A DNA stretch of 64,000 bases from Botryllus schlosseri (lineage: Eukaryota): assembly GCA_051294905.1 (NCBI GenBank), contig CM119372.1, positions 16,060,001 through 16,124,000 on the forward strand. Direction: 5' to 3'. The position numbers were made by a program, and so were the translations under genes. Below the pieces are notes generated by a model, which saw only the letters and a program-made list of their open reading frames with translations, did not search any database and had not been told where the DNA came from. Numbering within the stretch: position 1 is the first letter of the stretch; each line of letters starts with the position of its first letter. This document shows, piece after piece, positions 7,878 to 56,094 of this stretch.

Positions 7878-8131
7878 GTCCACAGCTTCGCCACGAATAG
7901 TTACCATGTTCAAGTCCTGCAGAGGCTTACTCCAGAATCCTACCCCAAGTGTTAGAGGTTTAACTAGGCTCCCTCTCGCCATCTGATCCTAGTATAGTGG
8001 GTCAATGCAACAAGTCGGCATAATAAAGAATATCGGCCTGGTTTGAATGTCCATTGCAGTCGAAAAAACATCATGAATCCCACGAGAATCCCACAAACGG
8101 CAAACTATAGCAACCGGTCGGAAGAGTCTAA

Positions 8132-13563: not shown

Positions 13564-16500
13564 CCCATAACCACGTGTTATAACCAGGGCCGTGGAGTCG
13601 GTAAATGTTACCACCGACTCCGGCTCCGACTCCGACTCCACACATTTTCAATATACCGACTACGACTCCGAATCCTGAGTCTTTAAACGTACCGACTCCG
13701 ACTCCGACTCCGACTCCGACTCCGACTCCGACTCCTGGGTCTTTAAACGTACCGACTCCGACTCCGACTCCCGACTCCGACTCCAGCATTATTACCAATT
13801 TACTTCGAAAATTATATTCCACATTTTCGGTTGAATGACTGTCATAGAACCATTAAACATATGCAAACATATGATTAACGGTGGCATGCTAAATTGTTTC
13901 ATTGTGGCACAGCTCGAATTATCCACTATGCAATTCTCACAAACTCCGATTTGAAAGAAAGATTTGCTAAGTATCCTTCCCTTTTCAAATTTTTATAACA
14001 TGGACTCTCTAATATCCTGAAATGTATGAATCATTCAAATGGCAGATATCCAATCCTGTATAATAAAAATGTAGATAAAAAATCCAAGTGTAGCTCTTGT
14101 GTATGAGTCAGCAACTAATAAAAATATTGAACCTACTAATTTTGTCATTGCACACTATACTATGATTACAAGCACACACACTCTTACTAATAATAGCCAT
14201 TGGTCATAAATGGAATTTAGTTAAGTAGTCAAAGAACATAGCCTATGTCTAGTCTATATGTACTTAATCAAGTATTCAAGGATTGGGACTTGCAGTCATT
14301 CTTAATCATTTATTCGACCCAAACAGCTAAGCTACATTACAAATATTTTTAAATTTGTCAAGTGGAAAGCATCGTTTGGTCATATTTACATCACTTCTAC
14401 AATTTTACGAAATCAGCAGATGCATTTGCTCTGTCACAATATTATAGTATAATTCCAAAAATTGCATCAATTTTGACTGCATCGCGAAAACGCATATTGC
14501 GATTTTCTTACCCTGTGCAACTGAGTTGTAATTTGCAAGTAATGTCTAGTTTTATCTATATCAGGGGTGGGGAACGTTTTCGGCCAAAGGGAGACAGGAG
14601 ATTTACGAATCATTACGCGGGCAACTGGAATGTTGTAACCTTTTTTTAGTCGTCCGATAGGAGCGAACCGAATTAGGTAACATTGCAACAAGACTTATAT
14701 TAATACGCTCTAAAATTGATAACAATATGTCATGCAACTGTGCAGTGCGCAATCAGGCCGTGGTCGCACGAAGCGCGAATTTTTTTGCAATATAATGACT
14801 GAATTATATCAATAAATATGTTGCTAACATACATCGGGGGTCGCATCTGTATGGCTACCACTGGGCTCATTTGGCAGGGACAGGATTATTCGACGTTTAG
14901 ACATAGCAAAATCGACGGTATCAGTGAACATGCCTCTATCATTTTGTGCAAATGTTTCGTCGACGATCTCGCTGCGGGTGCACAAGCGAAGCCGCATGTT
15001 GGACGACACGTTATCTCCTAATTGCGAATAATATGTATTTATAATTTTCAGAAGGGGGCTCAAAAACTGAATGCAAGACATGTACACTGTAAATTCTGAA
15101 GTGTTGCTCAACCCGGAAAATTGAACACGAAACGTGATCCAAAAATTGAACGCCTAGAAGTGTTACGAAGTGTTTAAATTAAAAGTGTTTAACTAAAAAG
15201 TGTTCAGCCTCAAAGTGGCTGGTTGACTAGTCACCGGAACGCAGGGCTCAAAATAAAATCAGATTTTATTGATTCATGAATAGATGACGCTTATAATACC
15301 CAACCTGGGTGATTAAATACGTGCAAACATTGAAATTTCCAATAGCTGCTGTGACAGGGTTTCATAAATTCAGATCAGCAGTTGAAACCGTTTCCGGAAT
15401 AGTCCATGAAATCACGAACATCACAAATGATCAAGAGCAAACTCACTACAAATATCATGCAACTCGTTCAATCATGAAAATGAATGCATAGGGAATTAGG
15501 GATAGTGATAACAAAATATCAATTAGTATCTTTAACTTTCGTGACAATGGCATGGAGTCAAATTCATTGGTTATGTCCGTTAACGGAAAACATGATCAAC
15601 ACAAATCAATAAAACTTATTTAAAATTGATCAAATTATGGCTTGTAAATTTCTAATTTTATTGTAAATAAACAAACAATGAATGTATCAGTTTCACTACC
15701 ACTACCACGATAAACAAGTAACAAAGTATTTTTTTACTCTTAATGAAATTGGGCCTGCTAACCAGGCATCAAAAATATTCTTGGGCTTGCATTACAAGTA
15801 TTTATATCAGGTTAATGCCAATCACTTTTGTTTAAATAACAAAGAAATCGTTTCTTTGAGTCAATACAAATTTTGCAGATTTACAGAAAATATTTTGTTG
15901 TTATTTACCAGTCTGCAGCAAAATATGAGATCTGGAAGTCATTAGGGCACTGGTTCTTGAACATTTTTGGACACGCCCCGTTATGATAGCAAAAAAATTT
16001 CACACACCCCTTATCGTCGTATCATGAAATTAAAAAAAGCAACCAGAACGCTAGAAATCCCAACTGATAGTTGGATGGCAGTGACGGTAATAGTTGTTGA
16101 TGACAGAATATTCAAATAATAAATTCTGACCATACACATAAGTGGAAGCTGCCATGTGCGAAAAAGATTTTAGTTGACAGCGGCTTCACGCCCCTTCAAA
16201 TGCTTTCTCCTGTTTGAGAACCACTCCTTCAGGGTATGACAATCCAATGCATAGTAGCTCAAAACGTCAACAATGTTTCTGAATAATCCATTTTCACTGA
16301 AGCAGTTTTATATTCTTGGCATCAGCTGCGATCCAGGATCGGTCAATCTCTGATTCGTGGCGTGCCATGGTGTTTGCTTCTTTTCTACTGGTCGACTCCA
16401 AGTTGCGCTCCTTGAAAATGTGATTAAATTCCAAAGTTTTGAATATGTCAATGAAAATTCTAAATTTTATGCAGAAATAAATATAAATATTTCACACATG

Positions 16501-17298
16501 CAGGTTACACAAGCGCAGGAAAGGCGCTCGGGTACATGTGAAATCCTATCACTGAGAAGGACTAAAATTCGCATAACGACTAATAAAAATATCTTGAATT
16601 AGGTCTGCGTTTTTTTCAATTCGGCCATTTTGACATTTACATTGACATTCAGACGCACAGGCCACAGTCAGAATGCAGAACTGTAACTCAGAATGAAATT
16701 TATAGCAGAACGTCTATGTAAATTTGTATGGTCCACAAAACAGAAAGATTACGATACCTGTTTCAATAAGACATGCGCTTGGGTCTTGGATTGTATTAGC
16801 TTGTCTCTCAATTTGGCTTGGAGAAGAAGACAGTTGACTTCATCAACCTCGTTTTGCTGAAAATGTAATTGATTGCAAACAAGATCCGAAAATAAATATA
16901 GTAGAATCGTTATTCCTATGGGTTTGGATTTCCATGACAATAATTGACATATGGTAGGCTTTACATATAACTTCGATTCTAAGATTTTATAGCTGCTTTG
17001 AATTGAGACAAGAAAATATACTAGACAAAGGACACATTGATTGTCTTTAGTACAAAAAACTTTGTGACATCTTATCGAAGGTGTTGAATAATTTTCCTTC
17101 ATTGCAGTAATTGTAATTGTTCTCAATCTTTCAAAATCCTTCCTTCCTGATTAAATTTAATTTACGAAATTATTTGGAATTAGCACGACATGGGAAATGA
17201 TCTCAATTTGATGTTCCAAGTATAGTTCAGTAAGCAGTAGTTTAAATACAAGTTACCCCAGCTCTTTACATTCAAGAACACCTCTGTTCAATGTACAC

Positions 17299-19663
17299 TA
17301 GGGTTGTTCAGAATTGATCGACTTTAAAAAAGTCGTGGTTTTCAGTCCGATTCCCATGCCTTATACCATAAAAACATATTCTAGGTACTTTTTTTCGTAA
17401 TTCATCCCTTGCATCCGTGTGCACATTGAGCTGGAAGAATATCGGCTAAAAATAGGGGATTCCCCTAAAATTTGAGTGTCGCTATTCGGACTAGGCTAGT
17501 AAAACGTCATATATAAGCTAGTTTTATGTAGCTATTGCGGTTGGAGTGCTACATAACCTCACTATAGAAAGTCTTGTCAGTTCAGGACACCATTTTCATG
17601 TCCCACACTGCCTTAGAACTCCTCAAAATTGCCTAAGACTGATACTCATTTTGTTGGATCACCTATCCTACACTCCTCAACCCTACCCGAGATTGTTCAT
17701 CAATTGCCGGGATCACCACGTGCAAGAATACAACTGTAAATGTATCATTCACTCACAGCCACATCATAAACATCACATTGTTCAAAGGAAACGAAACAAA
17801 AAGGCAAAGAAACAGATCAACTTGGCAAATACTACTTAAATCAGGTCCGGATGAAATGGTTGCTTTAGAGAAATCGGCACATCTGTTCCCGTTATCTTCC
17901 ACGGCTTGTAAGAGGCTCGCTCGCTGTTCTTTGTCATCTGTTTTGAAAGCAGCAAAGTCGGCATTCAATTTCACCAAACGCTCTGCTGCGCCGTTAACTA
18001 TTTCAACGCTACTCACAAATTCTTGAGCAGTCACGAAATGCGAATCAGTATGCCATTCCGAAACTGGAAGACTAAACCAATCATGTTCGACATGTATAGC
18101 ATTGAATAGAAACCATGATTCCGGTTCAATTAAAGCAACCATACTCATTGACTCAGAGACAGAGTCAGAGATTAGACTCAGAGGTATAGCCTACCTCTGC
18201 GAAATTGTTCAAGGATTGGCATTTGCAGCAATTTAGCAGCCATCGCTTCCTTCACTTTGTCAGGAATATTTGGTTTAGCCGAGAACATTGTTGAAACCAC
18301 CGTTTCCTCGGTGAGATGCCAATGATGTTCTCGCATCTTTTTATATGCCACATCAGCAACTGTGAAATCGCACAATGAAAAGTCCGTCATGCCATGAAGG
18401 AATTTGAGATCAATATACTGTGCGTCACATGCATTACCAGTTTTCAACCAAGCTGGGACATAAAACAGGGCAACTTTCTAATGAACTCTTCAGAATAGCC
18501 CATTTACTCTCTCCACATGAACATTTTGGACAGTACAGCACTTGACTCATCCATCCAGTGCTATTAGTAGCACCAGGCTTGCGAAAACGATTATCAATAT
18601 ATTGGGCAGCTACAATCGCTAAGGCGCCATCAGCTTTGATCGCCAACCAGCTGCATTCATCAAACTGAAGTGTTTTAGAGCTTCTTAATTGATCAATATC
18701 TTTCCACTTCTTGGAAGGTATTAAAATCTGTGTTTTCAGGGCCTGTGGTCGCAGATCCAAACACACTTCACTTCCAGACCTCCCCGGATGACTAGTTCAT
18801 AAATATGATGGCGACAAGCAGAAGTAGAAAGTAGAAAACTTTCCTGTTTATCAATTCTTCAAGTAACAGAACCGCACCTTTATTTTTTCCATTGTTTGAG
18901 GGTGTTGTGTCAAACACAAGAGCTCTGACATTATTTGTTAAATTATAAAGTTCCAGCAGTTCAAATGACAGATCAGCCTGTGCTTTTCCTGTAGCACTCT
19001 CCAGAGTTCGATTGCCAAGAAGTTTGCCTTTCTCAAATGCGTTGGAATACGCAGACTATGCCAGCACTGCCAAGGCCTCAAATTTCCCTCCGAAACGACT
19101 TCTAGTGAGCTTTGCATCCCAGTGCAATGCAATGTGCCAAGTTGATCTGTTTCTTTGCCTTTTTGTTTCGTTTCCTTTGAACAATGTGATGTTTATCATG
19201 TGGCTGTGAGTGAATGATACATTTACAGTTGTATTCTTGCACGTGGTGATCCCGGCAATTGATGAACAATCTCGGGTAGGGTTGAGGAGTGTAGGATAGG
19301 TGATCCAACAAAATTACTATCAGTCTTAGGCAGTTCTGAGGAGTTCTAAGGCAGTGTGGGACATGAAAATGGTGTCCTGAACTGACAAGACTTTCTATAG
19401 TGAGGTTATGTAGCACTCCAACCACAATAGCTACATAAAACCAGTTTATATATGACGTTTTACTAGCCTAGTCCGAATAGCGACACTCAAATTTTAGGGG
19501 AATCCCCTATTTTTAGCCGATATTCTTCCAGCTCAATGTGCATACGGACGCAAGGGATGAATTACGAAAAAAAGTACCTAGAATATGTTTTTATGGTATA
19601 AGGCATGGGAATCGGACTGAAAACCACGACATTTTGAAAGTCGATCAATTCTGAACAACCCTA
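17299..19663 (-). mobile_element. hAT (hATm-like) transposon with ~530-bp TIRs
   Basis: TAGGGTTGTTC...GAACAACCCTA; perfect 8-bp TSD ATGTACAC; 17299-17827 is inverted at 19135-19663. Confidence 0.93.
17828..19134 (-). pseudogene. Frameshifted hATm-type transposase
   Basis: Ordered motifs in shifting frames: LHWDAKL, LVFDTTPSNNGKNKGA, ACRHHIYEL, FRKPGATNSTGWM, HHWHLTEETV, IVNGAAERLVKL...DDKEQRASLLQAVE. Confidence 0.85.
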
Positions 19664-20029
19664 ATGTACACAGATCAAGCCTCTCTTCAGCTCATATCGC
19701 ATATATAGATAGTTATTGAGAAAATTAGGATTGCAAAAACCAGCACATTACATAATCAATGGTGATATATGAAATGAATAAATAGACTTACATAATCACA
19801 TGTTTCCATGGGTTCTTGAGGCAAAAGTATTATCGCAAAAGACGACTGCACCGGCACAAAATCCGTTCAGATGACTCCTCACGTCACTATCAACACTGTC
19901 TGTTAGCACAGGCACGGTAGAACCAGGGGGTCTTTTCGAAGAGTCGACACCAGTTGGATGAATTTGAAGATCAATCCAAGACTGTTGAAAAGAAAATACT
20001 TGTTTGAAAAATTTGCAATACAAGGGAAC

Positions 20030-20205: not shown

Positions 20206-22793
20206 TCAGTATTACGCAGATATCAGACTGGATACATTTGTATGTGACAAAAGGGTGTCTTTCATAGAACAAATAATTATTGTAATGGAAAGTTGCAAGT
20301 GACCGTACCACCAATTTTACTCCAGCACGAGTAGCATACTTTCCTGGATTGTTAATCATTTTAGTGGAATTTTACCAGCAAACATTCATAAAAATAACCG
20401 AATGCAGCAGAATCAAATTCATTATCTAAGGATATACCAGTTTACTTACGAAACACCGCGATGCTTACCAGTATTTTAAACAACAAATGCATTTCAAGAA
20501 GGTGCCAATTGCAATACATACTACCTGCACATTAGGGCATTTTTCATATTCTTTCCATCAGCCGCAACCCAGGCTTGATGAGTCCCTGATTCGTGGCGTG
20601 CCATGGCGGATCTTTTTTTTACTGGTCCAATCCAAATGCTGCTCCTAGAAAATACGAAACATTACAAAGGAAAATTGTAAATTTGATGCAGAAGTAAATA
20701 TAAATATTTCACACAGGTAGGTTACAGAAGCGCAGGAGAGGTGCTCAGCCCCCCAGGTTGAGAGCCACTCACCTAGCCCATTATAGTTAAGTAAGCAATA
20801 GTTAAAGTACAAGTTACATGAGCTCATTACGTTCAACTACATCTCTGTTCAGTGTTCAGTGTACGCAGTTCAGGGTACACTGTACAGTGTACACTGTACA
20901 GTGTACACAGATGAAGCCTTTTTCAGCTCATATCGAATAGCCCGTAAGCTACTCTGCGAGATAGTTCGTGAGAAAAGTAGGACTGCAAAAACCAGCAAAT
21001 TACATAATCAATGGTGATATATAAAATGAATAAATGGGCTTACATAATCACATGTATCCATGGGCTCTTGAGACAAAGGTCTGTATCACATAAGATGACT
21101 GTGCCGGCAAAAAACCCGTTACGAACGACTCCTCACGTCACTGTCAACATTGTCTGATAGCGCAGGCACGGTAGACCCAGGGGGCTCTTTTCAAAGAGTG
21201 GACATCAGTTGAACGAATTTGAGGATCAATCCAAGACTATTGAAAAGAAATATTTGTTGCCAAAATTCGCAATACAAATGAACTGCTCAGTAATCACGCA
21301 GATATCATACTGGATACAGTTTTTTTTTCTGCAATAAGTTGTGCGTGACAGAAGGGTGTCTTTCATAGAATAATTAAGTAATGGAATGGAAAGTTGCACA
21401 TGACGTTACCACCAATTTTACTCTGGCACAGTTAGTATACTTCCTGGATTGTTAACAATTTTTGTGAAATTTTATCAGCAAACATTCATAAAAATCTTTA
21501 TCACAAAGATAACCGATTGCAACAGAATCAAATTCATTCTCTAAGGATGTACCAGTTCACTTACAAAATACCGTGATGCTTACCAGTAATACATACAGCA
21601 AATGCATTTCAAAAAGGTGCCAAGTTCAGTACATACTACCTGCAAAATAGAGTTTAGTTCAGTACCGTATCACAATAAACTCAGAAAAGTCAAATTTGGG
21701 GATTGGGCAAAACAAATACTACCCCTTGTGATCCATGGTTTGTTGAAAAGATTGTTTGTTTGGCTGTGCTATTATTGGGGCGATTTTTTGGGCCTAAAAC
21801 GGTAAGATTTTGACTAAAAAATTCACATTCACAGATATTTTGATGATGAAAAACTTAATTTTGACCCCATGTACTTAAATTAGGTGTTTCTCACATAGTG
21901 TTAGAATTGTATTACCGGAACTTATCTTTATTTCTGGCTGGAGCTGTCTGTTCTTCCGAAGTAATTTGACCTGAAAAAATCTTTTAACATGAAAATTGAC
22001 AAATTTTTACATGAAAAAGAACTTATTTTATCGAAATCTGGACCCATGAATAATTCTAGTATTAGTTACATCTCGTATTATGGTAGAAATAATTAAAAAT
22101 TTGTTGTAGTACAACGGAAGATACTTTCCTACATTTTCGGGTAGAAAGTGTCTGTCCTAACTAAGTAGCTTGGCAAGAATGAAGAAAGAACGTTCACCAG
22201 CACTCTCTCTTTCATTATGACAAAGTTGTCTACATCGCAATTTTTCATCATACGGTTTCTAATAGAAGAACCAATGCCCACGCAGTCTTGCTTCAATTAG
22301 GATAATGCAATAGGCTACGTTGAGTATTTGTTTCATTTGGCAGTTTATGATTCACAATGAGCAGACGATGGTCCGTCTACAACGGTAGGACTATAAAGTA
22401 GGCTACAAGATGTAAATTGTAAAATGATAAGTTCACCGAGAGTGCAATCATCTATGATGCAAACGAAATGCAAGTTGCCAACAAAATTTTGATTTTGTAA
22501 AGAATTTTGGCAATTTTTGACCTAACACCTTACCACTTGGAATAAACAGTACAGTGTAAAATGTGTTGCAGTTGAAAAATAATCAAAACCGTTGCATGAC
22601 TGTCATACCGGCATTCAATTGCTGACATTGCAGTACTTGTCCACAATGGACCACAATATCGTCTACATAGCGATATTTCAGTGTGGATAGAGAGAATTTT
22701 ACCAAATTTTATGTAGATCCGTCGCCAAAAACGTGTCCAAAATAGATAACCATGAATTAGCACTTGCAATATTTCAACCAAATACGCGAGAAG

Positions 22794-25700
22794 CTCTCGT
22801 GTTTCGATGAGCGCAGTTCCGGAAAACAACATTTGCAGTAAATGTACACGATATCACTAGACGAAGCTTGTATAGCACCTTAATCGTGCCAAATATTAAA
22901 GCTGTAGCAAATGTCTTAAGGGTCATAAACGCCGCCGACTTCTGGAAAAAATTACCACATTTTGGCGAATCGCGTCTATGAGAATTGCCACGAAATCGCA
23001 AAAACCTCTCGTGTTTCGATGAGCGCAGTTCCGGAAAACAACATTTGCAGTAAATGTACACGATATCACTAGACGAAGCTTGTATAGCACCTTAATCGTG
23101 CCAAATATTAAAGCTGTAGCAAATGTCTTAAGGGTCATAAACGCCGCCGACTTCTGGAAAAAATTACCACATTTTGGCGAATCGCGTCCATGAGAATTGC
23201 CACGAAATCGCAAAAACCTCTCGTGTTTCGAAGAGCGCAGTTCCGGAAAACAACATTTGCAGTAAATGTACACGATATCCCTAGACGAAGCTTGTATAGC
23301 ACCTTAATCGTGCCAAATATTAAAGCTGTAGCAAATGTCTTAAGGGTCATAAACGCCGCCGACTTCTGGAAAAAATTACCACATTTTGGCGAATCGCGTC
23401 TATGAGAATTGCCACGAAATCGCAAAAACCTCGCGTGTTTCGATGAGCGCAGTTCCGGAAAACAACATTTGCAGTAAATGTACACGATATCCCTAGACGA
23501 AGCTTGTATAGCACCTTAATCGTGCCAAATATTAAAGCTGTAGCAAATGTCTTAAGGGTCATAAACGCCGCCGACTTCTGGAAAAAATTACCACATTTTG
23601 GCGAATCGCGTCCATGAGAATTGCCACGAAATCGCAAAAACCTCTCGTGTTTCGATGATTGCAGTTCCGGAAAACAACATTTGCAGTAAATGTACACGAT
23701 ATCCCTAGACGAAGCTTGTATAGCACCTTAATCGTGCCAAATATTAAAGCTGTAGCAAATGTCTTAAGGGTCATAAACGCCGCCGACTTCTGGAAAAAAT
23801 TACCACATTTTGGCGAATCGCGTCTATGAGAATTGCCACGAAATCGCAAAAACCTCTCGTGTTTCGATGAGCGCAGTTCCGGAAAACAACATTTGCAGTA
23901 AATGTACACGATATCACTAGACGAAGCTTGTATAGCACCTTAATCGTGCCAAATATTAAAGCTGTAGCAAATGTCTTAAGGGTCATAAACGCCGCCGACT
24001 TCTGGAAAAAATTACCACATTTTGGCGAATCGCGTCCATGAGAATTGCCACGAAATCGCAAAAACCTCTCGTGTTTCGATGATTGCAGTTCCGGAAAACA
24101 ACATTTGCAGTAAATGTACACGATATCCCTAGACGAAGCTTGTATAGCACCTTAATCGTGCCAAATATTAAAGCTGTAGCAAATGTCTTAAGGGTCATAA
24201 ACGCCGCCGACTTCTGGAAAAAATTACCACATTTTGGCGAATCGCGTCTATGAGAATTGCCACGAAATCGCAAAAACCTCTCGTGTTTCGATGAGCGCAG
24301 TTCCGGAAAACAACATTTGCAGTAAATGTACACGATATCACTAGACGAAGCTTGTATAGCACCTTAATCGTGCCAAATATTAAAGCTGTAGCAAATGTCT
24401 TAAGGGTCATAAACGCCGCCGACTTCTGGAAAAAATTACCACATTTTGGCGAATCGCGTCCATGAGAATTGCCACGAAATCGCAAAAACCTCTCGTGTTT
24501 CGAAGAGCGCAGTTCCGGAAAACAACATTTGCAGTAAATGTACACGATATCCCTAGACGAAGCTTGTATAGCACCTTAATCGTGCCAAATATTAAAGCTG
24601 TAGCAAATGTCTTAAGGGTCATAAACGCCGCCGACTTCTGGAAAAAATTACCACATTTTGGCGAATCGCGTCTATGAGAATTGCCACGAAATCGCAAAAA
24701 CCTCTCGTGTTTCGATGAGCGCAGTTCCGTAAAACAACATTTGCAGTAAATGTTCACGATATCCCTAGACGAAGCTTGTATAGCACCTTAATCGTGCCAA
24801 ATATTAAAGCTGTAGCAAATGTCTTAAGGGTCATAAACGCCGCCGACTTCTGGAAAAAATTACCACATTTTGGCGAATCGCGTCTATGAGAATTGCCACG
24901 AAATCGCAAAAACCTCGCGTGTTTTGATGAGCGCAGTTCCGGAAAACAACATTTGCAGTAAATGTACACGATATCCCTAGACGAAGCTTGTATAGCACCT
25001 TAATCGTGCCAAATATTAAAGCTGTAGCAAATGTCTTAAGGGTCATAAACGCCGCCGACTTCTGGAAAAAATTACCACATTTTGGCGAATCGCGTCCATG
25101 AGAATTGCCACGAAATCGCAAAAACCTCTCGTGTTTCGATGATTGCAGTTCCGGAAAACAACATTTGCAGTAAATGTACACGATATCCCTAGACGAAGCT
25201 TGTATAGCACCTTAATCGTGCCAAATATTAAAGCTGTAGCAAATGTCTTATGGGTCATAAACGCCGCCGACTTCTGGAAAAAATTACCACATTTTGGCGA
25301 ATCGCGTCTATGAGAATTGCCACGAAATCGCAAAAACCTCGCGTGTTTTGATGAGCGCAGTTCCGGAAAACAACATTTGCAGTAAATGTACACGATATCC
25401 CTAGACGAAGCTTGTATAGCACCTTAATCGTGCCAAATATTAAAGCTGTAGCAAATGTCTTAAGGGTCATAAACGCCGCCGACTTCTGGAAAAAATTACC
25501 ACATTTTGGCGAATCGCGTCTATGAGAATTGCCACGAAATCGCAAAAACCTCTCGTGTTTCGATGAGCGCAGTTCCGGAAAACAACATTTGCAGTAAATG
25601 TACACGATATCACTAGACGAAGCTTGTATAGCACCTTAATCGTGCCAAATATTAAAGCTGTAGCAAATGTCTTAAGGGTCATAAACGCCGCCGACTTCTG

Positions 25701-26837
25701 GAAAAAATTACCACATTTTGGCGAATCGCGTCTATGAGAATTGCCACGAAATCGCAAAAACCTCTCGTGTTTCGATGAGCGCAGTTCCGGAAAACAACAT
25801 TTGCAGTAAATGTACACGATATCCCTAGACGAAGCTTGTATAGCACCTTAATCGTGCCAAATATTAAAGCTGTAGCAAATGTCTTAAGGGTCATAAACGC
25901 CGCCGACTTCTGGAAAAAATTACCACATTTTGGCGAATCGCGTCTATGAGAATTGCCACGAAATCGCAAAAACCTCGCGTGTTTCGATGAGCGCAGTTCC
26001 GTAAAACAACATTTGCAGTAAATGTTCACGATATCCCTAGACGAAGCTTGTATAGCACCTTAATCGTGCCAAATATTAAAGCTGTAGCAAATGTCTTAAG
26101 GGTCATAAACGCCGCCGACTTCTGGAAAAAATTACCACATTTTGGCGAATCGCGTCCATGAGAATTGCCACGAAATCGCAAAAACCTCTCGTGTTTCGAT
26201 GATTGCAGTTCCGGAAAACAACATTTGCAGTAAATGTACACGATATCCCTAGACGAAGCTTGTATAGCACCTTAATCGTGCCAAATATTAAAGCTGTAGC
26301 AAATGTCTTAAGGGTCATAAACGCCGCCGACTTCTGGAAAAAATTACCACATTTTGGCGAATCGCGTCCATGAGAATTGCCACGAAATCGCAAAAACCTC
26401 TCGTGTTTCGATGAGCGCAGTTCCGTAAAACAACATTTGCAGTAAATGTTCACGATATCCCTAGACGAAGCTTGTATAGCACCTTAATCGTGCCAAATAT
26501 TAAAGCTGTAGCAAATGTCTTAAGGGTCATAAACGCAGCCGACTTCTGGAAAAAATTACCACATTTTGGCGAATCGCGTCTATGAGAATTGCCACGAAAT
26601 CGCAAAAACCTCGCGTGTTTCGATGAGCGCAGTTCCGGAAAACAACATTTGCAGTAAATGTACACGATATCCCTAGACGAAGCCTGTATAGCACCTTAAT
26701 CGTGCCAAATATTAAAGCTGTAGCAAATGTCTTAAGGGTCATAAACGCCGCCGACTTCTGGAAAAAATTACCACATTTTGGCGAATCGCGTCTATGAGAA
26801 TTGCCACGAAATCGCAAAAACCTCTCGTGTTTCGATG
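22794..26837. repeat. Tandem array, 19 x 212 bp (left arm)
   Basis: Unit start ctc(t/g)cgtgttt recurs from 22794 to 26822, a distance of exactly 19 x 212. Confidence 0.98.
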
Positions 26838-27581
26838 CTGCAACCGTAACTCACAGTGCTTACTATCACATAGTTCCAACACCACAGATATCAGCGATAT
26901 GTATTCAAAGCGTCAGCGTCACCCACTCATCTGTCTGTAGTCGAGAGAATCTTTGGTTAGCACCAGATGCTGATTCCATATTTGTTGTTGTGTATTGTGC
27001 TCTCATCACAACTCCAACCATGATGTTTCCTGACTACCGAAATCTGTAAGTCAATATGTTGATGTAAAAAAACTGTATTACTATACACCACGTTATTAGT
27101 CTTATTTTAAGATCATACCGTGACAACTCATCATGGTCTTCAAAAAGCTGAATCGGTGTCAATTACGAGTCTTGACCTTTAGACTAAATCTGTCTACTTT
27201 CGTGTAGAAACGTATCACTCTTGATTGTGTTTCTCTACTTTCAGGTTCCTGGTGTCTCGGAGAAGTCAGTTGAACTGATTTAAAAGAATGAATGTGAAAA
27301 GGGACTGAAGTATAGAATTGAAGCAACTGGAAGTTCAAAACATTGTTATATGGGCATTGATACTTGAAATTATGACCGGTGTTTCGGTCTTAATTGCTAA
27401 AGTAAAAAAGGAAAAAACTGATAACATAAAAGACACTTCAGTTGCCCCAAAAGAAACTTCGCGGATTCGAGAAGACTGAAATTGAGGTGATTGGTGACGA
27501 GCCTCTAAACCCCTTGCTCGGCCTTTCGAAATGGTCTAGAGCCCTGTGCCTAGATAAGGCCAAATTGATCAAAGTCGTAAC

Positions 27582-27947
27582 ATGCTGCTTTCTTCCACTG
27601 TGTGGCTAAATAGCGACACTATCGATCATTTTATGTCGATGATGAAATCACAATTTCCTCAAGTATTAGATGGACTGACGCTTTGCGGCTATTATAGTAG
27701 AGATCGTGCGGGCCAGTTTACGCTCCTGAACAAGAAAAACAATTTATTCAAATAATTGACATAAATAACAATCATTGGGTCACCGCTTCGAACACGTGCA
27801 GATGTCGAAATATGTGTGCATGATTCCGCCTATAATTCTTCGGCATATAACGACAAAACCTTATGTTCAATCGGAATGCTGAGTAGGCCGTGTTCGAGCG
27901 CTCTTGAAGTGCTTTTTCCTCTCGTCCAACAGCAATGTAATGGTAGT
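27582..27947 (+). pseudogene. Ulp1/C48-like cysteine protease remnant
   Basis: WLNSDTIDHFMSMMKSQFP / frameshift / FIQIIDINNNHWVTASN / frameshift / VHDSAY...VQQQCNGS, then truncated before the expected DCG. Confidence 0.8.
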
Positions 27948-28599
27948 GTTATATATCATGTTTTATATTAAATCCACAAATGGTGGTTTATACGCATCAA
28001 CTTTGTTACATGTGCAACCCTGGGAATGCCGTGTTTTCTTGGGTACATGCGTTCTTCATGATAATGTGTCCCCTTTGTTAGCTCGTTCCTTTTGACGAGC
28101 TCCGTATTTTCTTCGCCATTCTCTCAATGCCCTTTCATCCTTTCTGAAGCCCTGCCTAGTTTCCTGTAAGTAAATATGATTCTATTATCATGAGACTACC
28201 ACAGTGGGCCTCTCGTGGGCCTGGCATCCAATTGTAGCATGTCTCTGACACTCTGCTTAGTTTCTGATGCGGAACTGGAAGTTGCAATGCAAATCAGCAA
28301 CGTTGTAACCATTTCTACTGCGCTATGTGTGATAGTTTGCACGCATCACGTCCTATCGCAACATTTTCCTTAATTTGCATGTAGACCTAGTAGTACTCTA
28401 TTTATATTATCAATATGTTAACACCGCACCATGTCTTTGACAACTCTGCCTCTGCTCAATGTTATGTTGGGCAGTAATTTGCACGCCTCACATCAATATC
28501 AGCAACACACTAAGTGCTGTGTACTGTAATATGCACGCATTTATCGGTATGTATTCTGGACGTGGTTTTGGTACAAATGCATCATGAAGGACTGTATGA

Positions 28600-29500
28600 T
28601 GAGGCGCGATGCTAATAGATGCATGGGTGTTCCATTTCGCAGTTTATCAAATGATGAGACGCAATGCTAATAGTTGCATGATTCTTCCATTTCGCAGTTT
28701 ATCAAATTTTCTTAGTTGTAAAATTTCATGATAATTATCTGCGCTAGTAAAATTTATTGCGACATCCAATCTCGCACCATGTCTTTGACAACTCTGCCTC
28801 CCCTCGATGCCAGACATCTTTGAATAATATTTTGCAGTTTTGTTGGCTCTTTGCACCAAATCGTCTAGTAGTGTTATTCACCCAACATCCAATCGCACCA
28901 TGTCTTTATAAATGCTCCTTTGCACAGAGTCACCTAGTAGTGTTATTCACCCAACATCCAATCGCACCATGTCTTTGTAGATGCTCCGTTGTACAGAATC
29001 ACCTAGTAGTCGTTTTATACTTTCATCAAAAAGCAGAATTTTAAATGTATGTCTTTTGTCATGTATTCTGCTGTTATGTATAGAATTTGCTCTTGTAGTT
29101 CTGCTGCAAGACAGCAACAGCCTTTCGACTCGTTGACAGTTTTGGTTGTAAAATTTCATAATAATTATCTGCGCTAGTGAAATTTATTGCGACATCCAAT
29201 CCCGCACCATGTCTTTGACAACTCTGCCTTCCCTCTATGCCAGACATCTCAGAGTAATATTTTGCAGTTTTGTTGACTCTTTGCACCAAATCACCTAGTA
29301 GTGTTATGTTATTCACCCAACAGCCTTTCGACTCGTTGACAGTTTTGGTTGTAAAATTTCATGATAATTATCTGCGCTAGTGAAATTTATCGCGACATAC
29401 AGTGGGCATGTTTATATCTCTGATTACCCTGTGCGTTGGTTATTGTTTCCAAACATCCAGTCTCACCATGTCTTTGAATAATATTTTGCAGTTTTGTTGA
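28600..29500. repeat. Irregular internal duplications in the foldback core
   Basis: ttgtaaaatttcat(g/a)ataattatctgcgctagt x3 (~28716, 29146, 29349); caccatgtcttt several times; two ~69-bp tandem units near 28865-29010. Confidence 0.8.
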
Positions 29501-30459
29501 CTAGCTATTTGCACCGAAGCTCCCAGAAGCATATGTTTAAGTTGTATCGATTCACTGTATTCACAGCCTGTTGAAACTTTGTGCTGAACTGGTATCATGT
29601 GTATATTACTTTGCATGATAATATATGTCCTTTGTTAGCTCTCTTCTGTTAAAGAGTCTGTGTCCACTACATGACCTATGGTAATTCCAGTTATCGTTGC
29701 TGAGTTCACATGTTCTGTTCTTTGAAAATCTATTGCGGAGTTCACATGTTCTGTTCTTTGAAAATCTATTGCGGCTTTCAACCACTCTCTGCCCCTGTTT
29801 ATGATGCTTGGTACAAACATACAGATGCCACAGCCTTGCACGTACAGTACGTATGTGTACAGTTGGAATAGTGCATTGATATATTATGCCACTGTTAGTG
29901 TTCATTGAATCCATATGCTGCTATTACAAGCATGTTGCCATAAATAACAAGTGTTTCAGTAATCCATATGTTTGCTTCTGCTTTCCTGCAAAGGGAGACT
30001 GCCATATGTTTATATTCACTGATATGATACATTGTGTTACTTCGCAGTAATGGAGATGATTAGTAACAAAACCTTAACGGTTATATTACTGTAACATTTC
30101 ATGTCTGAGAAAGCAATAAACGTCCGTGTCTCCCTTATAATGCCTTGAGAGATTTTATTATTGCACTGCAATGTCATATCCAGGATGGAGGATAGCGAAA
30201 GGTCATGTTTACATCGGGTGGGTATAGAGCTAGTAGGATTCCTGACGCGATGGCTACATCAGTATTTCTTTGTCATGTGGTCTGACTCCTTCGTGCGAAA
30301 ACTCTTTCATTTCTTTCACTGGTAACGGCTCTTCGGTAGGCCTACAGCAGTAATGTCAACCTGAACATAACAGCAAGGTAAATAGCGATGTGAGAGTTCG
30401 CGATTTGGTGGCGATCCGTCAATATGTCGTAATGTTTTCTATAAGTGGTCGTTGTCTTG

Positions 30460-32074
30460 GACCCTTGAGACATTTGCTACAGCTTAAATATTTGGCACGA
30501 TTAAGGTGCTATACAAGCTTCGTCTAGGGATATCGTGTACATTTACTGCAAATGTTGTTTTCCGGAACTGCGCTCATCGAAACACGAGAGGTTTTTGCGA
30601 TTTCGTGGCAATTCTCATAGACGCGATTCGCCAAAATGTGGTAATTTTTTCCAGAAGTCGGCGGCGTTTATGACCCTTAAGACATTTGCTACAGCTTTAA
30701 TATTTGGCACGATTAAGGTGCTATACAAGCTTCGTCTAGGGATATCGTGTACATTTACTGCAAATGTTGCTTTCCGGAACTGCGCTCATCGAAACACGAG
30801 AGGTTTTTGCGATTTCGTGGCAATTCTCATAGACGCGATTCGCCAAAATGTGGTAATTTTTTCCAGAAGTCGGCGGCGTTTATGACCCTTAAGACATTTG
30901 CTACAGCTTTAATATTTGGCACGATTAAGGTGCTATACAAGCTTCGTCTAGGGATATTGTGTACATTTACTGCAAATGTTGTTTTCCGGAACTGCACTCA
31001 TCGAAACACGAGAGGTTTTTGCGATTTCGTGGCAATTCTCATGGACGCGATTCGCCAAAATGTGGTAATTTTTTCCAGAAGTCGGCGGCGTTTATGACCC
31101 TTAAGACATTTGCTACAGCTTTAATATTTGGCACGATTAAGGTGCTATACAAGCTTCGTCTAGGGATATCGTGTACATTTACTGCAAATGTTGTTTTCCG
31201 GAACTGCACTCATCGAAACACGAGAGGTTTTTGCGATTTCGTGGCAATTCTCATGGACGCGATTCGCCAAAATGTGGTAATTTTTTCCAGAAGTCGGCGG
31301 CGTTTATGACCCTTAAGACATTTGCTACAGCTTTAATATTTGGCACGATTAAGGTGCTATACAAGCTTCGTCTAGGGATATCGTGTACATTTACTGCATA
31401 TGTTGTTTTCCGGAACTGCACTCATCGAAACACGAGAGGTTTTTGCGATTTCGTGGCAATTCTCATGGACGCGATTCGCCAAAATGTGGTAATTTTTTCC
31501 AGAAGTCGGCGGCGTTTATGACCCTTAAGACATTTGCTACAGCTTTAATATTTGGCACGATTAAGGTGCTATACAAGCTTCGTCTAGGGATATCGTGTAC
31601 ATTTACTGCAAATGTTGTTTTCCGGAACTGCGCTCATCGAAACACGCGAGGTTTTTGCGATTTCGTGGCAATTCTCATAGACGCGATTCGCCAAAATGTG
31701 GTAATTTTTTCCAGAAGTCGGCGGCGTTTATGACCCTTAAGACATTTGCTACAGCTTTAATATTTGGCACGATTAAGGTGCTATACAAGCTTCGTCTAGG
31801 GATATCGTGAACATTTACTGCAAATGTTGTTTTACGGAACTGCGCTCATCGAAACACGAGAGGTTTTTGCGATTTCGTGGCAATTCTCATAGACGCGATT
31901 CGCCAAAATGTGGTAATTTTTTCCAGAAGTCGGCGGCGTTTATGACCCTTAAGACATTTGCTACAGCTTTAATATTTGGCACGATTAAGGTGCTATACAA
32001 GCTTCGTCTAGGGATATCGTGTACATTTACTGCAAATGTTGTTTTCCGGAACTGCGCTCATCGAAACACGAGAG
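30460..32074. repeat. Tandem array, ~7.6 x 212 bp (right arm, inverted relative to the left)
   Basis: Reverse complement of the left-arm unit; 212-bp spacing of identical ORFs at 30535, 30747 ... 31807. Confidence 0.98.
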
Positions 32075-35000
32075 CTTCTCGCGTATTTGGTTGAAATATT
32101 GAAAGTGCTAATTCATGGTTATCTATTTTGGACACGTTTTTGGCGACGGATCTACATAAAATTTGGTATGGACAGAGTTCTATCTACGTTCTATCATATG
32201 TCAGTGTCCAAATCCGGATAAGCTATCCGGATACGCCGTTGTTTCATCATGATGATGATACCATCGTTCATGTTGTCACATTTCAGATTTAGTGGTTACC
32301 CTTCGATTTGTGTGATAGAATTTTGTGTGATAACTTCACTCTGGTGAGAGAACATCCCTTTATCCATATGTCAAAAAAGTTACTTTTATAGCAGCTTCCC
32401 ATCAGTACCGTAGTACTGGACCTGGTCGCAGCCTGGTATATTATCAGATTCGAAGCTCAATCATCCAGCAATAATATCAGACGAATCATATACTACAAAA
32501 CATCTAAAGAACATTCATATGAATAAGGGATATCAGTAGCCTACTAAAACATCTAAAACAAACGACGTTACTGCAATGTCAAAACGAGTTCATTTTATGA
32601 CTATTCTCACATTACATACATTCAATAACATTTACCGCATTTCCATACCTTACAGTACATGGATGTTATGATCCTTTACGCCATCAGGTAGTAGAAACCG
32701 CTTCAATATATCCATTTCGCCAAGTTTTTTCGTGTACCCTACTCTCTGCCTGAAGCCTGACGAACCACAAATCCAAACTGAAATCGAGCGCGCTCTACCG
32801 TAACGAAGGTGTTGACCCCTCTGCGTCACAGGGAAATATGTATATTTCATTGAAATATTACCCATAAACTTAGTGTTGGGTCAAGTGTGTAATATTATTT
32901 TACATATACCATGATTTAATGTGATCTCCAAACGTACCGATGGTTTATGAATGCAAAATTGATGATAAATTACCAAGTATAAATTTTCTTGAAAATAAGC
33001 CACAGTGGCGAAGTGTTACATGTAAACGGAGAAATACGCAGAAGCGTTGCGACGATAATGGCCCAATGCGTTTATATGCCCAAAAAGTGTGTCTGTACGC
33101 AGAAAAAAGTGTTATGAAGTGTTCAATACGACCTTGCGGATTTACAGTGTAGTGACAATGAATCATGTGAAGTACCGAGAATAATTTCAAGTCAAATAAA
33201 TCTGCTATGAAATATTCTACTTTATGGTCATATACGAAGATCTGGGATAAATGTGGCTGGCCCCTGGATACGCCAATGCGTCAGAACTGTTGTTTTAGTC
33301 ATCATCAAATTTCGCGGTCATGCTAATCAAATTTTGGTTGGCCTTGCAATTTTACCTGATGTCATAAATAATTTCGAGAATTACCTCGCAGGCCACGCCT
33401 AACCTCTTCGCGTGCCAAATTTGATCTGCGTGCCACGGGCAGGCCGCGCCTGATCTGTATGGTTATTAATAACAGTGATTGGTGGTAAATAAAAATTTTA
33501 TTGAAAATTCTTTGGAAGCAAATATTTTCATTAAAGAGAAGTTGGAGTCGGAGTCGAAGTCAGGGTCATTCTCACACACTCCGACTTCGACTCCGACTCC
33601 GACTCCAGCTATTATAGTTTTCACGACTCCGACTCCGACTCCGACTCCAGCTATTATAGTTTTCACGACTCCAACTGTGACTCCGACTCCATCAAGCGAA
33701 AATTATTCAGACTCCGACTCCGACTCCACCGACTCCGACTCCGACTCCACAGCCCTGGTGATAACTGTTGAACATACATCAATTTCGAGGGTTTCAACCA
33801 TTGCACGTCGTAAAAGTCGACTATATCTACTGCAAATACACGGAAATCTCATAGTAGGCCTCCATGTTTTTTTCGAAAATATTTAGAGAATTATAACAGA
33901 ATTATGAAACTCTTGCGAAAAAAAACGAACATTACTTTTAGTGTGACTTTTCAACCGGGCAATCATCGTACTTTTATCAATTCCATTGTTCGCGAATAAA
34001 GGTTTTGCCAAAGCCCACATGAATATATAGTATAATATGTAGTATAATAGTATATTGGTATATTATATTATATCACTGCTCATAATTATAAATACAGTTC
34101 ATAGTTATAATTATTTATATAGAAATGCTTGATAATACAGTATTCATTTTAAAACCAAATGCATTAGGTAACATTTTGGAATCAGTTGACTGGTGCGGCC
34201 CGCGAACGATTTGAAGGTTTGAATCCGGCCTGCAACGTAATTAGAGTATGACACCCCTGTTATAGAATGTGTGAATAATTTCGTATAACGATGCTGCTGC
34301 TCAGGAACAAGTGAACGGCGGCACGGAGAGAGTAAGAGGGAGAATGCGCAATCGGTGGCGTAACAATGGGCATTACGCAAGTGATTTGCGCTGCTCACTT
34401 GCTCCTGAGCGGTGGCATAATTGCTCCGGACAGCATTGCTGCGTAACAGCGCCAAATTTCGTCACAATGTACTAATTGAGACCGGATTTAGGAGATTCCA
34501 GGGCCATGGACGCTATAAAATATATTCTTTCGTTATCAGTACCGATTATACTGTCGATTGATATCCGTTTTATCAACTTTTGCTCTCGTCAAGTCCGTCT
34601 AGGTATTGCCGAAATTGCCTTTTGCTAAAAGGAAAGAACGACGTACGCAAACGCAGTGAGCCAGTCGACTTCGCTGTGTCCACATCTTTGTAGGACATTA
34701 TGGTCGTACACTTCAGCTACCATGATTGATTTGTCGCATGAATTATTACAGAAATGCATTGGTTGCCGCAGAAATTCACACTTTCATCTGTTCGCCATGT
34801 ACCAGTGCTTCTTGGTTCTGACTCACCAATAGGTTATTGTATTTCACCACTACACGTGTTTGATTCATTTGGAAACGTAGGCTGTGCTGAAACGTGGGAT
34901 ATCTGTCGGGTATTAGTTAGGGTCATGTAGTGGTAGTTGGGATTATAATTGGCTTCGATATGTATTTAATTGTCGTATTTGATTGTAATAAGAATTTCGC

Positions 35001-35773
35001 ATAAATAATTGGGTCAGTTGTTTGCCGCTGGTCAGGACACAGCTAGATTGAACGGTTCATTGCGATTTTGGCTACTTTACACTTTTCATTAGGCCAAAAA
35101 CAATTTTTGACCTGTTTGCTGAATGCTAAATTTGATGAAACGGGCATCAATGGGAAGCTGCTCCTGTACTGATTACGAAAATTTAAATTTCATTCTGCTT
35201 ATGGCCCTTGAACCCTTAACATCTGCCTTGAATTTTTGATTGTGATGGGGCTCTGCATTGTGACACAAAAATGCTGTCTGGCTCTTGCTCCCGAGCTGCA
35301 CTCTCGTTTGCCATATATTTTTTTCTTCGCGCATTCAGTTTCCAATCACTGTTGTTTCAGGTAAAAAAAGTAAGGTGAATAATCGTAGGCGCACCGCGAA
35401 ATAGTGTTTCAAGTCAGATTTACTGTACGCTCCATCCGACATTAATAAGCTGTCGACGTCTGAGTCCTCGGTCGAATGCAGACTATTTACCCGAATACGC
35501 AGAAAATCCGATGTCAGTGACTTTCGATGCATTTATTCAGTTTTGAATAGTATGCACACTGCACATTCATCGCACAAATGACATAATTGATATAAATTTC
35601 AAAGCGTAGTAATATGAGTCTTGTTTTCAACATTACCTAATTCGGTTAACTCCTATCGGACGACTAAAAAAGGTCATCAACCTTCAGGTTGCCCGCGCAA
35701 TGGTTCGTAAATCTCATGTGGCCTTTGCCCGAAAAGGTTGGCTACCTCTGATCTAGGTAAATGCTTATATACT

Positions 35774-36770
35774 TAGGGATGGTGTGAACCTCTGAAAGGT
35801 TTAGGTTCGTGTGAACGCGAACCTTTTTGGAAGGTTCTGTGTGAACGCGAACGTGAACCTCATGACGTCACGTGACGTCATATTGCTAAGTCCAACCCTA
35901 CATTTCAGTGAAGTGGAATCCTATAATAATCTACACGATAACCAGCAATGACTCGGACGGCCACATAATATCACAATGCTGCAGTACATATTGACGTTGC
36001 CAAATGTATCAACTGGGGCAATCAAATGATATAATAATCCCATATACCGAAGTCATATCTTTCATCGCTTTGCCAACAATTTCGACGAGGACTTACAAGG
36101 GAATATACGCTTACGCCTTAACGATCTAGGTCAGACCGGACAATGTATTCGGCGACTGAGTATTGCTACGTTGGTATTGAGCAGAGTGTAAAACGGTTTT
36201 CCTTCTATACTTGCTACCGACATTACACCATTAACAAGTTGCACAGCTGTAGCCAACACCCCAATGGCACGTATTTGGTTTTTGGGACGCAATAAACATA
36301 TGAAGTCAAGATTAACCCCGTACACCTGCTAGATTTTTTACATCAGACAATGATATCAATTTCATTGATTGGTTGAATATCATTCGCTGACTACATGTTG
36401 TGTATTTCGCTGTTGATGTTGTGTGATTGCGGGTCAAGCTCACAACAAAGAGTCACTAAATATTCACAAACGGAAAGCTGAATATTTCGAGCAAACGTTT
36501 GGAAAAAAAAGCAAGTAAAATTTTTCAGATTGTCAAGGTGCATGCTCGTTTATTGTTGATCTTTTATGCTGCCGGCGCCCTACATAAAGTAGCCCCAAGT
36601 TTCAATGCAATAAATTTTAACAAATATGTTATAATGAAGTGAAAATTGTAATATGTGAAAAACGTTCACAGTGCAGAACCTACCAAGATTCGTTTGTGAA
36701 CGTGAACCTCTAAATTTTCGAGGTACACAAACAGAACGCGAACTTGAACCTCACGTTCACACCATCCCTA
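35774..36770 (+). mobile_element. TAGGGATGG hAT-type MITE, full length
   Basis: TAGGGATGGTGTGAAC...GTTCACACCATCCCTA TIRs. Confidence 0.92.
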
Positions 36771-37998: not shown

Positions 37999-38014
37999 GT
38001 CTAGATATCCTTGG

Positions 38015-38968
38015 CGTGATGTGTGTGAAACTCACGAATTTATAGGTTCACATTCACAAACAAACCTTGGTAGGCTCAGCACTGTGACCTTTTTCATTTA
38101 TTACATTTTTTCACGTCGTTGTAACAGCTTTGGTGGAAATACTTTGCATTTCACCATTGGACCACTTTCTGCATGGTGATGGAAGGTAAAAAATATCAAC
38201 ACTTAACGAGCATGCACCTTGCTAAACTCAAAAACTTTACTTACTTCGTTACAAAAGTTTGCTCGAAACAATCAGCTTTCCATTCGTGAATATGCAGTGA
38301 CTCTCTACAGTGAGCTCGAACCGCAATCACACAAAATCAATAACGAAATACACTACATGTAGGTAGTCAGCGAATGATGCTTATTACACAAATTAAAGGA
38401 ATTGATATAAAGAATACAACGTTGTCTAATGTAAAAAATCTAGCAGGCGTACGGGATTCATCTTGAATAAATATGTTTTTTTATATCATAATAAACAAAT
38501 CAGTGCGATTTGGGTGTTGGCTACAGTTGTTTATGGGTTGATATCGGTGGCAAGTATTGAAACCCGTTTTACACTCTTCTCAATATCAATGTAGCAATAG
38601 TCAGAAGCCGAATACATTGTCCGGTCTAGCCTAGACCGTTATGGAGTGAGCTAATATTCCCTTTCATGTCCTTGTCGATATTGTTGGCAGATCGGAAGAT
38701 ATTGATTTTATGGGATAAAATATAACATATGATTGCCTCAGTTGATGCATTTGGAATCGCTTAAAAAGTCAGTATGTGCTCCAGCATTGTCATATAATGT
38801 GGTCATCATCGCTAGGTATCTTGTGTATCACTTCGCTGAAATGTGGGGTTGGGTTTAGCAATATGACGCCACGTGACGTTCTAGGTTCACCTTCGCGTTC
38901 ACACAGAGCCTTTCAAAAAGATTCGCGTTCACACGAACTTGAACCATTCAGGGGTTCGCAACATCCTG
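38015..38968 (-). mobile_element. TAGGGATGG MITE, diverged reverse copy
   Basis: Reverse-complement similarity along its length to 35774-36770. Confidence 0.8.
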
Positions 38969-56090: not shown

Positions 56091-56094
56091 GTCT

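Follow-up and report, generated by a model that had tools for sequence, protein, structure and literature searches.

Structure of the element

A 9.5-kb stretch (22700–32168) of the window, meaning the whole 64-kb stretch of DNA analysed, consists of mirror-image arms with 212-bp tandem units flanking a 3.6-kb core that contains a broken protease gene (Table 1). The longest inverted pair (22700–24462 and 30406–32168) is 1763 nt long and 98% identical, and by complementarity of the arms a 1.7-kb stem would be possible. The outer 94 bp of the two arms differ only at position 22766, confirming the near-perfect inverted ends described in an earlier note on this DNA, and arm identity ends abruptly beyond 22700 and 32168. 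The left terminus is either 22700 (TACC) or 22701 (ACC). This outer domain weakly resembles the second half of the 212-bp unit; 2 of 706 background stretches score as well. No further copies of the end, unit or core were found elsewhere within the window, and an Rfam search over 21500–33500 gave no matches.

Table 1. Positions of the element's parts and of adjoining features in the window.
Feature	Position	Strand	Remarks
Left neighbour, a separate, very abundant repeat outside the element	22063–22696		thousands of contigs on it
Candidate decayed target duplication, left copy	22684–22692	+	8/9 match to 32169–32177; 7 nt off the left end
Left outer domain of inverted arm, 94 bp	22700–22793	+	93/94 identical to right end
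Left array, 19.1 units of 212 bp	22794–26837	+	abrupt stop 16 nt into unit 20
Core, 3573 bp	26838–30410		without transposase match
Broken Ulp1/C48-type protease	27573–28015	+	in pieces, two frameshifts
Internal patchwork of short duplications	28412–29768	+	spacings 430, 203, 69, 55 and 36 bp; 89–97% alike
Degenerate inner end, eighth right-arm unit	30380–30459	-	score reached by 0/706 background stretches
Right array, 7.6 near-perfect inverted units	30460–32074	-	Tandem Repeats Finder, inverted pair, unit alignment
Right outer domain of inverted arm, 94 bp	32075–32168	-	matches left end
Candidate decayed target duplication, right copy	32169–32177	+	flush with right end

Satellite arrays

Tandem Repeats Finder gave a period of 212 for both arrays, with 98% matches over the 19.1 copies on the left and 97% over 7.8 copies on the right (30411–32074). 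The right array resolves into seven full units and about 0.6 of a near-perfect one, the remainder of the eighth unit being degenerate; the earlier counts of 19 left units and about 7.6 inverted right units around a 3.6-kb core are borne out in this sequence. The degenerate part reads as an older unit that was left out of homogenisation, kept in the right arm and without a counterpart in the left. The flanks of the element were ruled out as further older units, with 87 and 355 of 536, then 56 and 418 of 706, background stretches scoring as well; the first figure of the second pair belongs to the left-neighbour repeat, which is not unit-like.

The arrays are recently homogenised, units differing by ~1.4%. 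Mean differences per unit are 3.3 within the left array, 2.9 within the right and 3.1 between arms. Four types of unit variant are found in both arms, in an order that is not mirrored, and the mirror register of the arms gives 20 differences, within a range of 14–27 over 13 registers. The left array also contains recent duplications of two-unit blocks (units 5 and 6 match 7 and 8; units 2 and 3 match 8 and 9). Folding of the 212-bp unit is no better than that of shuffles (z -0.99).

Protease remnant

The protease remnant that the earlier note had seen inside the core is real, though fragmented. It keeps the His and Asp motifs, while the helix with the catalytic Cys is missing and the PHD finger expected downstream is absent in this copy. 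It is 81% identical to P0002 over 53 aa, after which only 11 nt separate the matches to residues 110 and 124 of P0002; P0002 itself has a PHD domain above cut-off and a C48 domain just below it. Among 121 proteins, collected with a profile that included P0005, the best scores against the read-through remnant were those of P0002 (90.5 bits), P0005 (70.8) and P0121 (50.1). The last two are its best long relatives in this set, and both are Mutator-type transposase–C48 fusions. The remnant is 31% identical to P0005 over 128 aligned positions, and P0005 and P0121 are 41% identical to each other over 661 aa.

The N-terminal part of P0005 groups with MULE clusters. P0121 groups at 0.98 with an ESM Atlas cluster named “120.7 kDa protein in NOF-FB transposable element”, an automatic name; the link to the fly element runs via the protease only. 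This cluster contains the nearest long relatives of the protease, and part of its members carry C48 (45%) and PHD (34%); the PHD match of P0121 is below cut-off (E 4e-4). No FLYWCH domain was found on P0005 or P0121. In the tree, the set uniting the window with P0005 and P0121 has support of 92/96, unstarred, includes two unlabelled rows and comes from a tree from which 85 of 103 YqaJ rows were left out. The earlier note had considered the element unclassified; the protease points instead to NOF-FB/Rehavkus-type relatives of Mutator.

Outside the protease region, the core matched none of the 121 proteins at E 0.05, and a profile built from two transposases found no transposase in the six frames of the window. 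Pfam did not detect the protease in core pieces or in the read-through, and a word-index search for longer relatives of the read-through found none among 110 candidates. The linker upstream of the protease showed no significant likeness to P0005 or P0121 (1257/5000 and 451/5000 shuffles). P0003 and P0004 were discarded as relatives, their matches being repeat-driven and due to chance.

Termini, target site and dispersal

Tandem arrays with a 197–205-bp repeat are borne by 7 of 25 loci encoding relatives of the NOF-type transposase, representing three or four families; the other 18 are without a ~200-bp array, many of them on short contigs. Two of the loci, L003 and L001, are 99.8% identical where they overlap and belong to a single element, which has inverted 203-bp arms, ends in ACC and is flanked by an exact duplication of 9 bp. 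All four ends of relatives found by pairwise alignment begin ACC, a motif that begins 1.2% of window positions. Elements encoding relatives of the P0121-type transposase end ACC...GGT, and the element here has ACC...GGT one base in, the arms reading T-ACC, which lends no support to the earlier view that its ends fit no superfamily. Beyond ACC, its ends are no more like those of the relatives than expected by chance (84/1236), and its unit has no significant likeness to theirs (best 16/300). A 10-bp duplication at the flanks of a second relative element was set aside, a TA on each side being the simpler reading. These features, namely ends in ACC, a duplication of 9 bp and units of ~200 bp, come from relatives in other animals.

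At the element itself, TA stands at both ends, the only target-like signal named in the earlier note, and no exact 8–11-bp duplication is flush with them. A flush 9-bp target duplication has 2/9 matches under either end placement, a result for this copy only. Within 3 kb leftward, nothing but the candidate decayed duplication in Table 1 matches with one mismatch or fewer, and its left copy lies partly in the sequence of the neighbouring repeat. A second candidate (22690–22698 and 32171–32179, 7/9) was rejected: 463 of 20,000 random pairs did as well, and it leaves bases over on both sides.

Contig pieces from other sequencing runs suggest that the element is not confined to this locus. Of the 32 longest pieces (of 27,883), four begin matching at 22700, with 8–12 differences over 97–126 nt (7–10% diverged). 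They stem from two samples and were compared on the left side only; the letters outside 22700 number 4, 224, 47 and 10, only two of these exceeding 30. Because four diverged contigs start matching at the same position, the left end is likely dispersed. The terminus is then likely to be common to other loci, and the element as a whole probably dispersed. A 24-nt end pattern had no matches in metagenome contigs. One sequencing run, X6, lacks cover over most of the 94-bp end, an absence that carries no weight either way. Three of the same 32 pieces end at 22696, the boundary of the left-neighbour repeat; because this repeat leaves the window sequence there, a simple empty site is not seen.

The description of the element as young holds for the arrays, with their near-identical units, and not clearly for the insertion: the gene is decayed, the duplications in the core and the ends at other loci have diverged to the extents given above, and no intact target duplication is left.

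Origin of the element

The earlier proposal of a foldback-type mobile element with satellite arms is supported, as is a place near the Mutator superfamily. The element is probably non-autonomous and derived by deletion from a Mutator-related cut-and-paste transposon of the NOF-FB/Rehavkus type, and is graded a likely derivative rather than a member because the flush 9-bp target duplication is absent. The parent would have encoded a transposase, a Ulp1/C48 protease and a PHD finger, as in P0121. The transposase would have been lost by deletion, probably where the left array breaks off at 26837, and deletions would also have taken the catalytic helix and the PHD finger. Such a copy would have moved only via a transposase from an intact relative, which would bind the outer domain and perhaps, on the model of Galileo, the tandem units as well. 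Galileo belongs to the P-element superfamily and is marked by a THAP-domain P-type transposase. Unequal crossing-over or slippage likely altered the unit number of each arm separately (19 and 7.6), and arm-to-arm exchange likely kept the units alike. The target duplication was likely lost by decay, by flanking rearrangement or by recombination between two copies after insertion.

Alternatively, TA could be a true 2-bp target duplication, the intact element ending CC...GG and being moved by a TA-targeting transposase, with the protease either cargo or the mark of a Mutator-related lineage whose footprint changed. A T precedes ACC at all six ends available (two in the window, four in contig records), compared with two of five in the relatives, and the absent 9-bp duplication would be explained without invoking rearrangement. 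However, the same pattern is expected if the terminus is simply TACC, and the contig records come from the biased set of longest pieces. In the relatives of the best-matching transposase, ACC ends go with duplications of 9 bp, and the departure of the neighbouring repeat at 22696 leaves no simple empty site in view. We regard this reading as unlikely. A more specific version is harder still to credit: that a foldback family of the NOF/Rehavkus lineage gave up the 9-bp footprint of its group in favour of a TA target but retained the arm units of ~200 bp (nucleosome-sized) typical of the whole group, conserved in length and not in sequence, with the two arms evolving as one pool.

Very doubtful is an origin from another protease-carrying transposon (Ginger1, YqaJ-linked or another C48–PHD carrier), with the foldback arms arising by convergence. 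C48 and PHD do occur on other transposon proteins (PMC2836005); similarity marks 103 of the 121 collected proteins as YqaJ-linked, several of the rest have C48 and PHD at their end, like P0002, and TIRs that are long and repetitive have arisen convergently in different superfamilies (PMC3573991). The best BLASTP scores of P0002 are to P0103 and P0108, because PHD is common to them. The protease alone, however, scores at most 33 bits with the C48 domains of YqaJ-linked and integrase-linked proteins, compared with 71 and 50 bits for the two fusions of NOF type, and a starred branch (98/96) divides YqaJ rows and integrase-linked rows, the latter so labelled from a reading of motifs, from the window. 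Ginger1, with a Gypsy-like integrase, has TGTNR termini and a 4-bp CG-rich target, CCGG or CCGT (PMC2836005), both absent here, where the ends read TACC.

Finally, it is highly improbable that this is an assembly artefact, or an ordinary satellite that was duplicated once in inverted orientation and was never mobile as a unit: the lack of a target duplication and of a second copy in the window would fit, but the arms do not mirror each other unit by unit, the old degenerate unit is in the right arm only, diverged copies start at the same base, the core holds a transposon-type protease, and the ends fit the ACC rule of the relatives one base in. IS3EU and Academ were also set aside as candidates, on the basis of their terminal rules alone.

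Comparison with known elements

Rehavkus elements (for example Rehavkus-1_TC and Rehavkus-3_TC) are Repbase DNA transposons placed in or beside the MULE/Mutator superfamily in available excerpts of three accounts (PMC6446971, PMC12581902, PMC10218199). The excerpts give them a 9-bp TSD, a PHD finger and TIRs of 26–400 bp (PMC6446971), together with subterminal tandem repeats that vary (PMC12581902). The inverted arms, outer ends and tandem arrays found here correspond to the structural definition in the excerpted PMC12581902. The exact 9-bp TSD is missing in this copy, as is the MULE-related DDE transposase, which the protease's best long relatives do carry; Ulp1 is unmentioned in the excerpts of all three accounts. 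The NOF-FB foldback element of Drosophila melanogaster (Dfam DF000001677) has, from a partial account, a satellite-like repeat in its long TIRs (10.64898/2026.09.13.751287), as here.

Tetris of D. virilis, as far as the excerpted description goes (PMC4079207), is likewise a non-coding foldback element, with an outer flanking domain that is partly unit-like, followed by ~220-bp tandem units in arrays that grow inside the element. It differs in keeping 8–10-bp TSDs, in having no protease remnant and in arrays of up to 66 units. Phantom and Tm1, in excerpts of PMC3169594 and PMC6446971, are Mutator-related with foldback-like TIRs and variable internal repeats; Tm1 units are ~14 bp, compared with 212 bp here, and some copies are without a TSD, one such case being attributed to crossover between copies. 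Phantom has a FLYWCH domain, a MULE transposase and an 8–10-bp TSD; neither a transposase nor a flush TSD is present here.

Asymmetric growth of satellites in the arms, which the earlier note inferred here, has been published, with unequal unit numbers per arm, for Rehavkus (PMC10218199, PMC12581902) and Tetris (PMC4079207), according to the portions available. With its architecture already published for Rehavkus, NOF-FB and Tetris, the element most likely represents no new class, and it does not alter existing knowledge of the seeding of satellites by foldback elements. It contributes a further family to a group that has been little described and is known mainly through Repbase, and for which ends in ACC, a duplication of 9 bp and units of ~200 bp together provide a simple search signature. 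The locus would be a rearrangement breakpoint if its lack of a target duplication goes back to recombination between two copies. It is also a clean case of satellite growth inside transposon arms, in which exchange between the arms can be measured from 26 near-identical units that share variants across the two inverted arrays.

Inverted arms and their arrays

The foldback structure claimed in the earlier note was borne out, with 19.1 units of 212 bp in the left arm facing 7.8 inverted units in the right (table). The outer 94 bp of the two arms are alike at 93 of 94 positions, the likeness breaking off at 22700 and 32168, and the longest inverted pair in the element is 1763 nt at 98%. No further match to the end, unit, or core was found elsewhere in the window. 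Among 26 full units 15 columns are variable. In the left array, blocks of two units were recently duplicated (units 5,6 are identical to 7,8, and 2,3 to 8,9). Four variant types are common to both arms, yet their order is not mirrored: 20 differences over 7 units were counted in the mirror register, where the 13 registers tried span 14–27. On average, 3.3 differences separate units of the left arm, 2.9 those of the right, and 3.1 units taken from opposite arms. At its inner end the left arm stops abruptly, and the right has a degenerate unit, with a score reached by 0 of 706 background stretches. The outer 94 bp have a weak likeness to the second half of the unit (2 of 706 background stretches). 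At 22751, 22762, and 22767 both arms carry an identical base, and most contigs aligned there carry another. These features fit either sequence exchange between arms or a subfamily that is small and recent; they fit neither a single mirror duplication nor a fold-back read artefact.

Probable dispersal of the end, and target site

Contigs from four sequencing runs on three samples were aligned to 22050–22870, and 32 of the 27,883 resulting pieces were listed. In four of these 32, from two samples, the match starts exactly at 22700, with 4, 224, 47, and 10 non-matching letters outside and 8–12 differences over 97–126 nt. Alleles of the element's own right end would match from this base too but would be expected to be ~99% alike; because these pieces are more diverged, they are likely other copies of the end. 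Three of the 32 depart from the window sequence at 22796–22803, which suggests relatives with the same outer domain but another unit.

The earlier note saw no target signal beyond a terminal TA, and this holds for either placement of the ends: no flush target site duplication (TSD) was found for 22700–32168 or 22701–32167 (2 of 9 matches). The best candidate, with 8 of 9 matches, abuts the right end directly but lies 7 nt from the left one. It is the sole such match within 3 kb leftward, and the 7 extra bases belong in part to the adjacent left-flank repeat. Another candidate, with 7 of 9 matches, was rejected; 463 of 20,000 random pairs reached it. T precedes ACC at six of six ends observed in the element's family and two of five in relatives, so the terminus may be TACC or the target may be TA.

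The left flank is a separate, very abundant repeat, with thousands of contigs per run in three runs and without a second copy in the window. It ends 3 nt before the element, and three of the 32 listed pieces stop at 22696. The right flank (32169–32232) begins with a 6-bp inverted pair followed by a hairpin, and possibly represents the terminus of a different mobile element.

Protease remnant

The Ulp1/C48 protease remnant in the core was translated by reference, with X placed at stops, and retrieved four proteins among 1.84 billion, two of which were dropped because repeats drove the matches. Protein P0002 is 81% identical to the remnant over 53 aa, with a PHD domain above the Pfam cut-off and C48 slightly below it. 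The remnant skips from P0002 residue 110 to 124, and the helix with the catalytic cysteine is gone; by comparison with P0002, the core also has no PHD. A wider search for longer relatives gave 224, of which 120 were listed. When the window protease (X at breaks) was ranked against 121 proteins, P0002 scored 90.5 bits, P0005 70.8, P0121 50.1, and the rest at most 42, including YqaJ-linked (up to 33) and integrase-linked proteins (up to 31.5). The labels “Ginger-like” and “Mut20700” on ranked proteins are our own assignments, based on motifs. Similarity to a ~900-aa YqaJ-nuclease protein common in marine animals (YqaJ, often PHD, then C48) was seen in 103 of the 121.

A protease tree of 37 rows, which omits 85 of the 103 YqaJ rows, places the window next to P0002 as a pair (support 100/98); these two, P0005, P0121, and two unlabelled rows form a six-row set (92/96, unstarred). 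P0005 has a MULE-like N-terminal part and C48, and is 41% identical over 661 aa to P0121, which has a C-terminal C48 plus a PHD match below cut-off (E 4e-4). P0121 falls at 0.98 into a cluster whose automatic name refers to the 120.7-kDa protein of NOF-FB. No trace of a transposase was detectable in the core by comparison with the 121 proteins, or in six frames of the window with a profile of two transposases.

Transposase relatives

Scanning with the P0005/P0121 alignment yielded 25 loci from metagenome contigs, many of them short, mostly with 27–53% identity over parts of the transposase. Arrays of 197–205 bp occur in seven and of 45–46 bp in four others; the seven sort into three or four families and so are not seven independent cases. 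Two loci overlapping at 99.8% were joined into one 4.4-kb element (L003:3512–6849 + L001:1–1939) from another organism. It has inverted arms of ~203-bp repeats, an exact 9-bp duplication, a partial NOF-like transposase, and ACC at each end. In L002 and L013 the aligned ends likewise begin ACC; the L021 end (L021:1842), added by a motif search that required ACC, is the same end as that of the joined element. The window arms have T-ACC at their ends, and ACC begins 1.2% of window positions. Past ACC, likeness to the relatives' ends lacks significance (84 of 1236), and their units show no relation to the 212-bp unit. No C48 match was found in any of the 25 loci, so their link to the window passes through P0005 and P0121.

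Origin and age

The excerpts cited here give Rehavkus a 9-bp TSD, terminal inverted repeats (TIRs) of 26–400 bp, and a PHD finger (PMC6446971), and inverted termini with variable tandem repeats, one family having 5 and 8 monomers and another up to 50, and derived arrays of up to 80.5 kb (PMC10218199; PMC12581902). One published Rehavkus unit is 164 bp (PMC10218199), which argues against a strict 200-bp rule. NOF_FB is described with long TIRs containing a satellite-like repeat (bioRxiv 10.64898/2026.09.13.751287), and the layout is also common to Tetris (PMC4079207) and Tm1, some copies of which lack a TSD (PMC3169594). Ulp1 is reported in Ginger1 and in hydra and lancelet Mutator elements (PMC2836005). 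In the PMC13359780 excerpts, Rehavkus serves as outgroup only. No statement on ACC termini for the Rehavkus/NOF-FB group was met in these excerpts.

The element, observed directly in its arms, protease remnant, ends, diverged copies, and absence of transposase, probably derives by deletion from a transposon of the NOF-FB/Rehavkus type. It behaves like that group but is not assigned to it, because this copy lacks the TSD and the transposase. The parent would have encoded a transposase, C48, and PHD; internal deletions would have stripped a copy, mobilised in trans. Units would have been gained and lost separately in each arm, and the arms would have exchanged sequence with each other. By analogy with Galileo, the units are putative transposase binding sites (excerpts of PMC3573991, PMC4079207). 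A protease role in transposition has been suggested in print (PMC2836005); the catalytic cysteine is missing from this copy.

The earlier description of the element as young applies to the arrays, which are recently homogenised; the decayed gene, core duplications 89–97% alike, diverged family ends, and missing TSD provide no indication that the insertion is fresh.

Surroundings

The surroundings appear to be those of an animal genome rich in repeats, with a reverse transcriptase ORF and many dispersed repeats. A second long-TIR element has ends CACTAGGG / CCCTAATG, with TA on each side, and minus-strand decayed transposase-like frames with no Pfam match. It is inserted in an older repeat, another copy of which lies nearby (table).

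Features of the element and its surroundings (positions within the window)
Feature	Position	Strand	Remarks
Outer ends	22700–22793, 32075–32168		
Left array	22794–26837		212-bp units, 19.1 copies
Core	26838–30410		
Protease remnant	27573–28015	+	
Right array	30411–32074		inverted 212-bp units, 7.8 copies
Left-flank repeat	22063–22696		
Right-flank hairpin	32212–32232		perfect 9-bp stem
Second long-TIR element	17296–19666		arms ~540 nt at 97%
Older repeat, other copy	~20900–21650		
~1-kb dispersed repeat	4487–5585, 8129–9038, 35764–36770, 38011–38966, 45492–46485, 56090–56612, 59786–60777	both	seven copies, 70–83% identity
603-aa open frame, reverse transcriptase domain	49207–51018	-	PF00078, E 6e-7
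Small foldback	51932–52280		inverted arrays of 16-bp unit, 6.9 and 6.7 copies
CCGACT microsatellite tracts	13654–13784, 33544–33750		one with inverted copy
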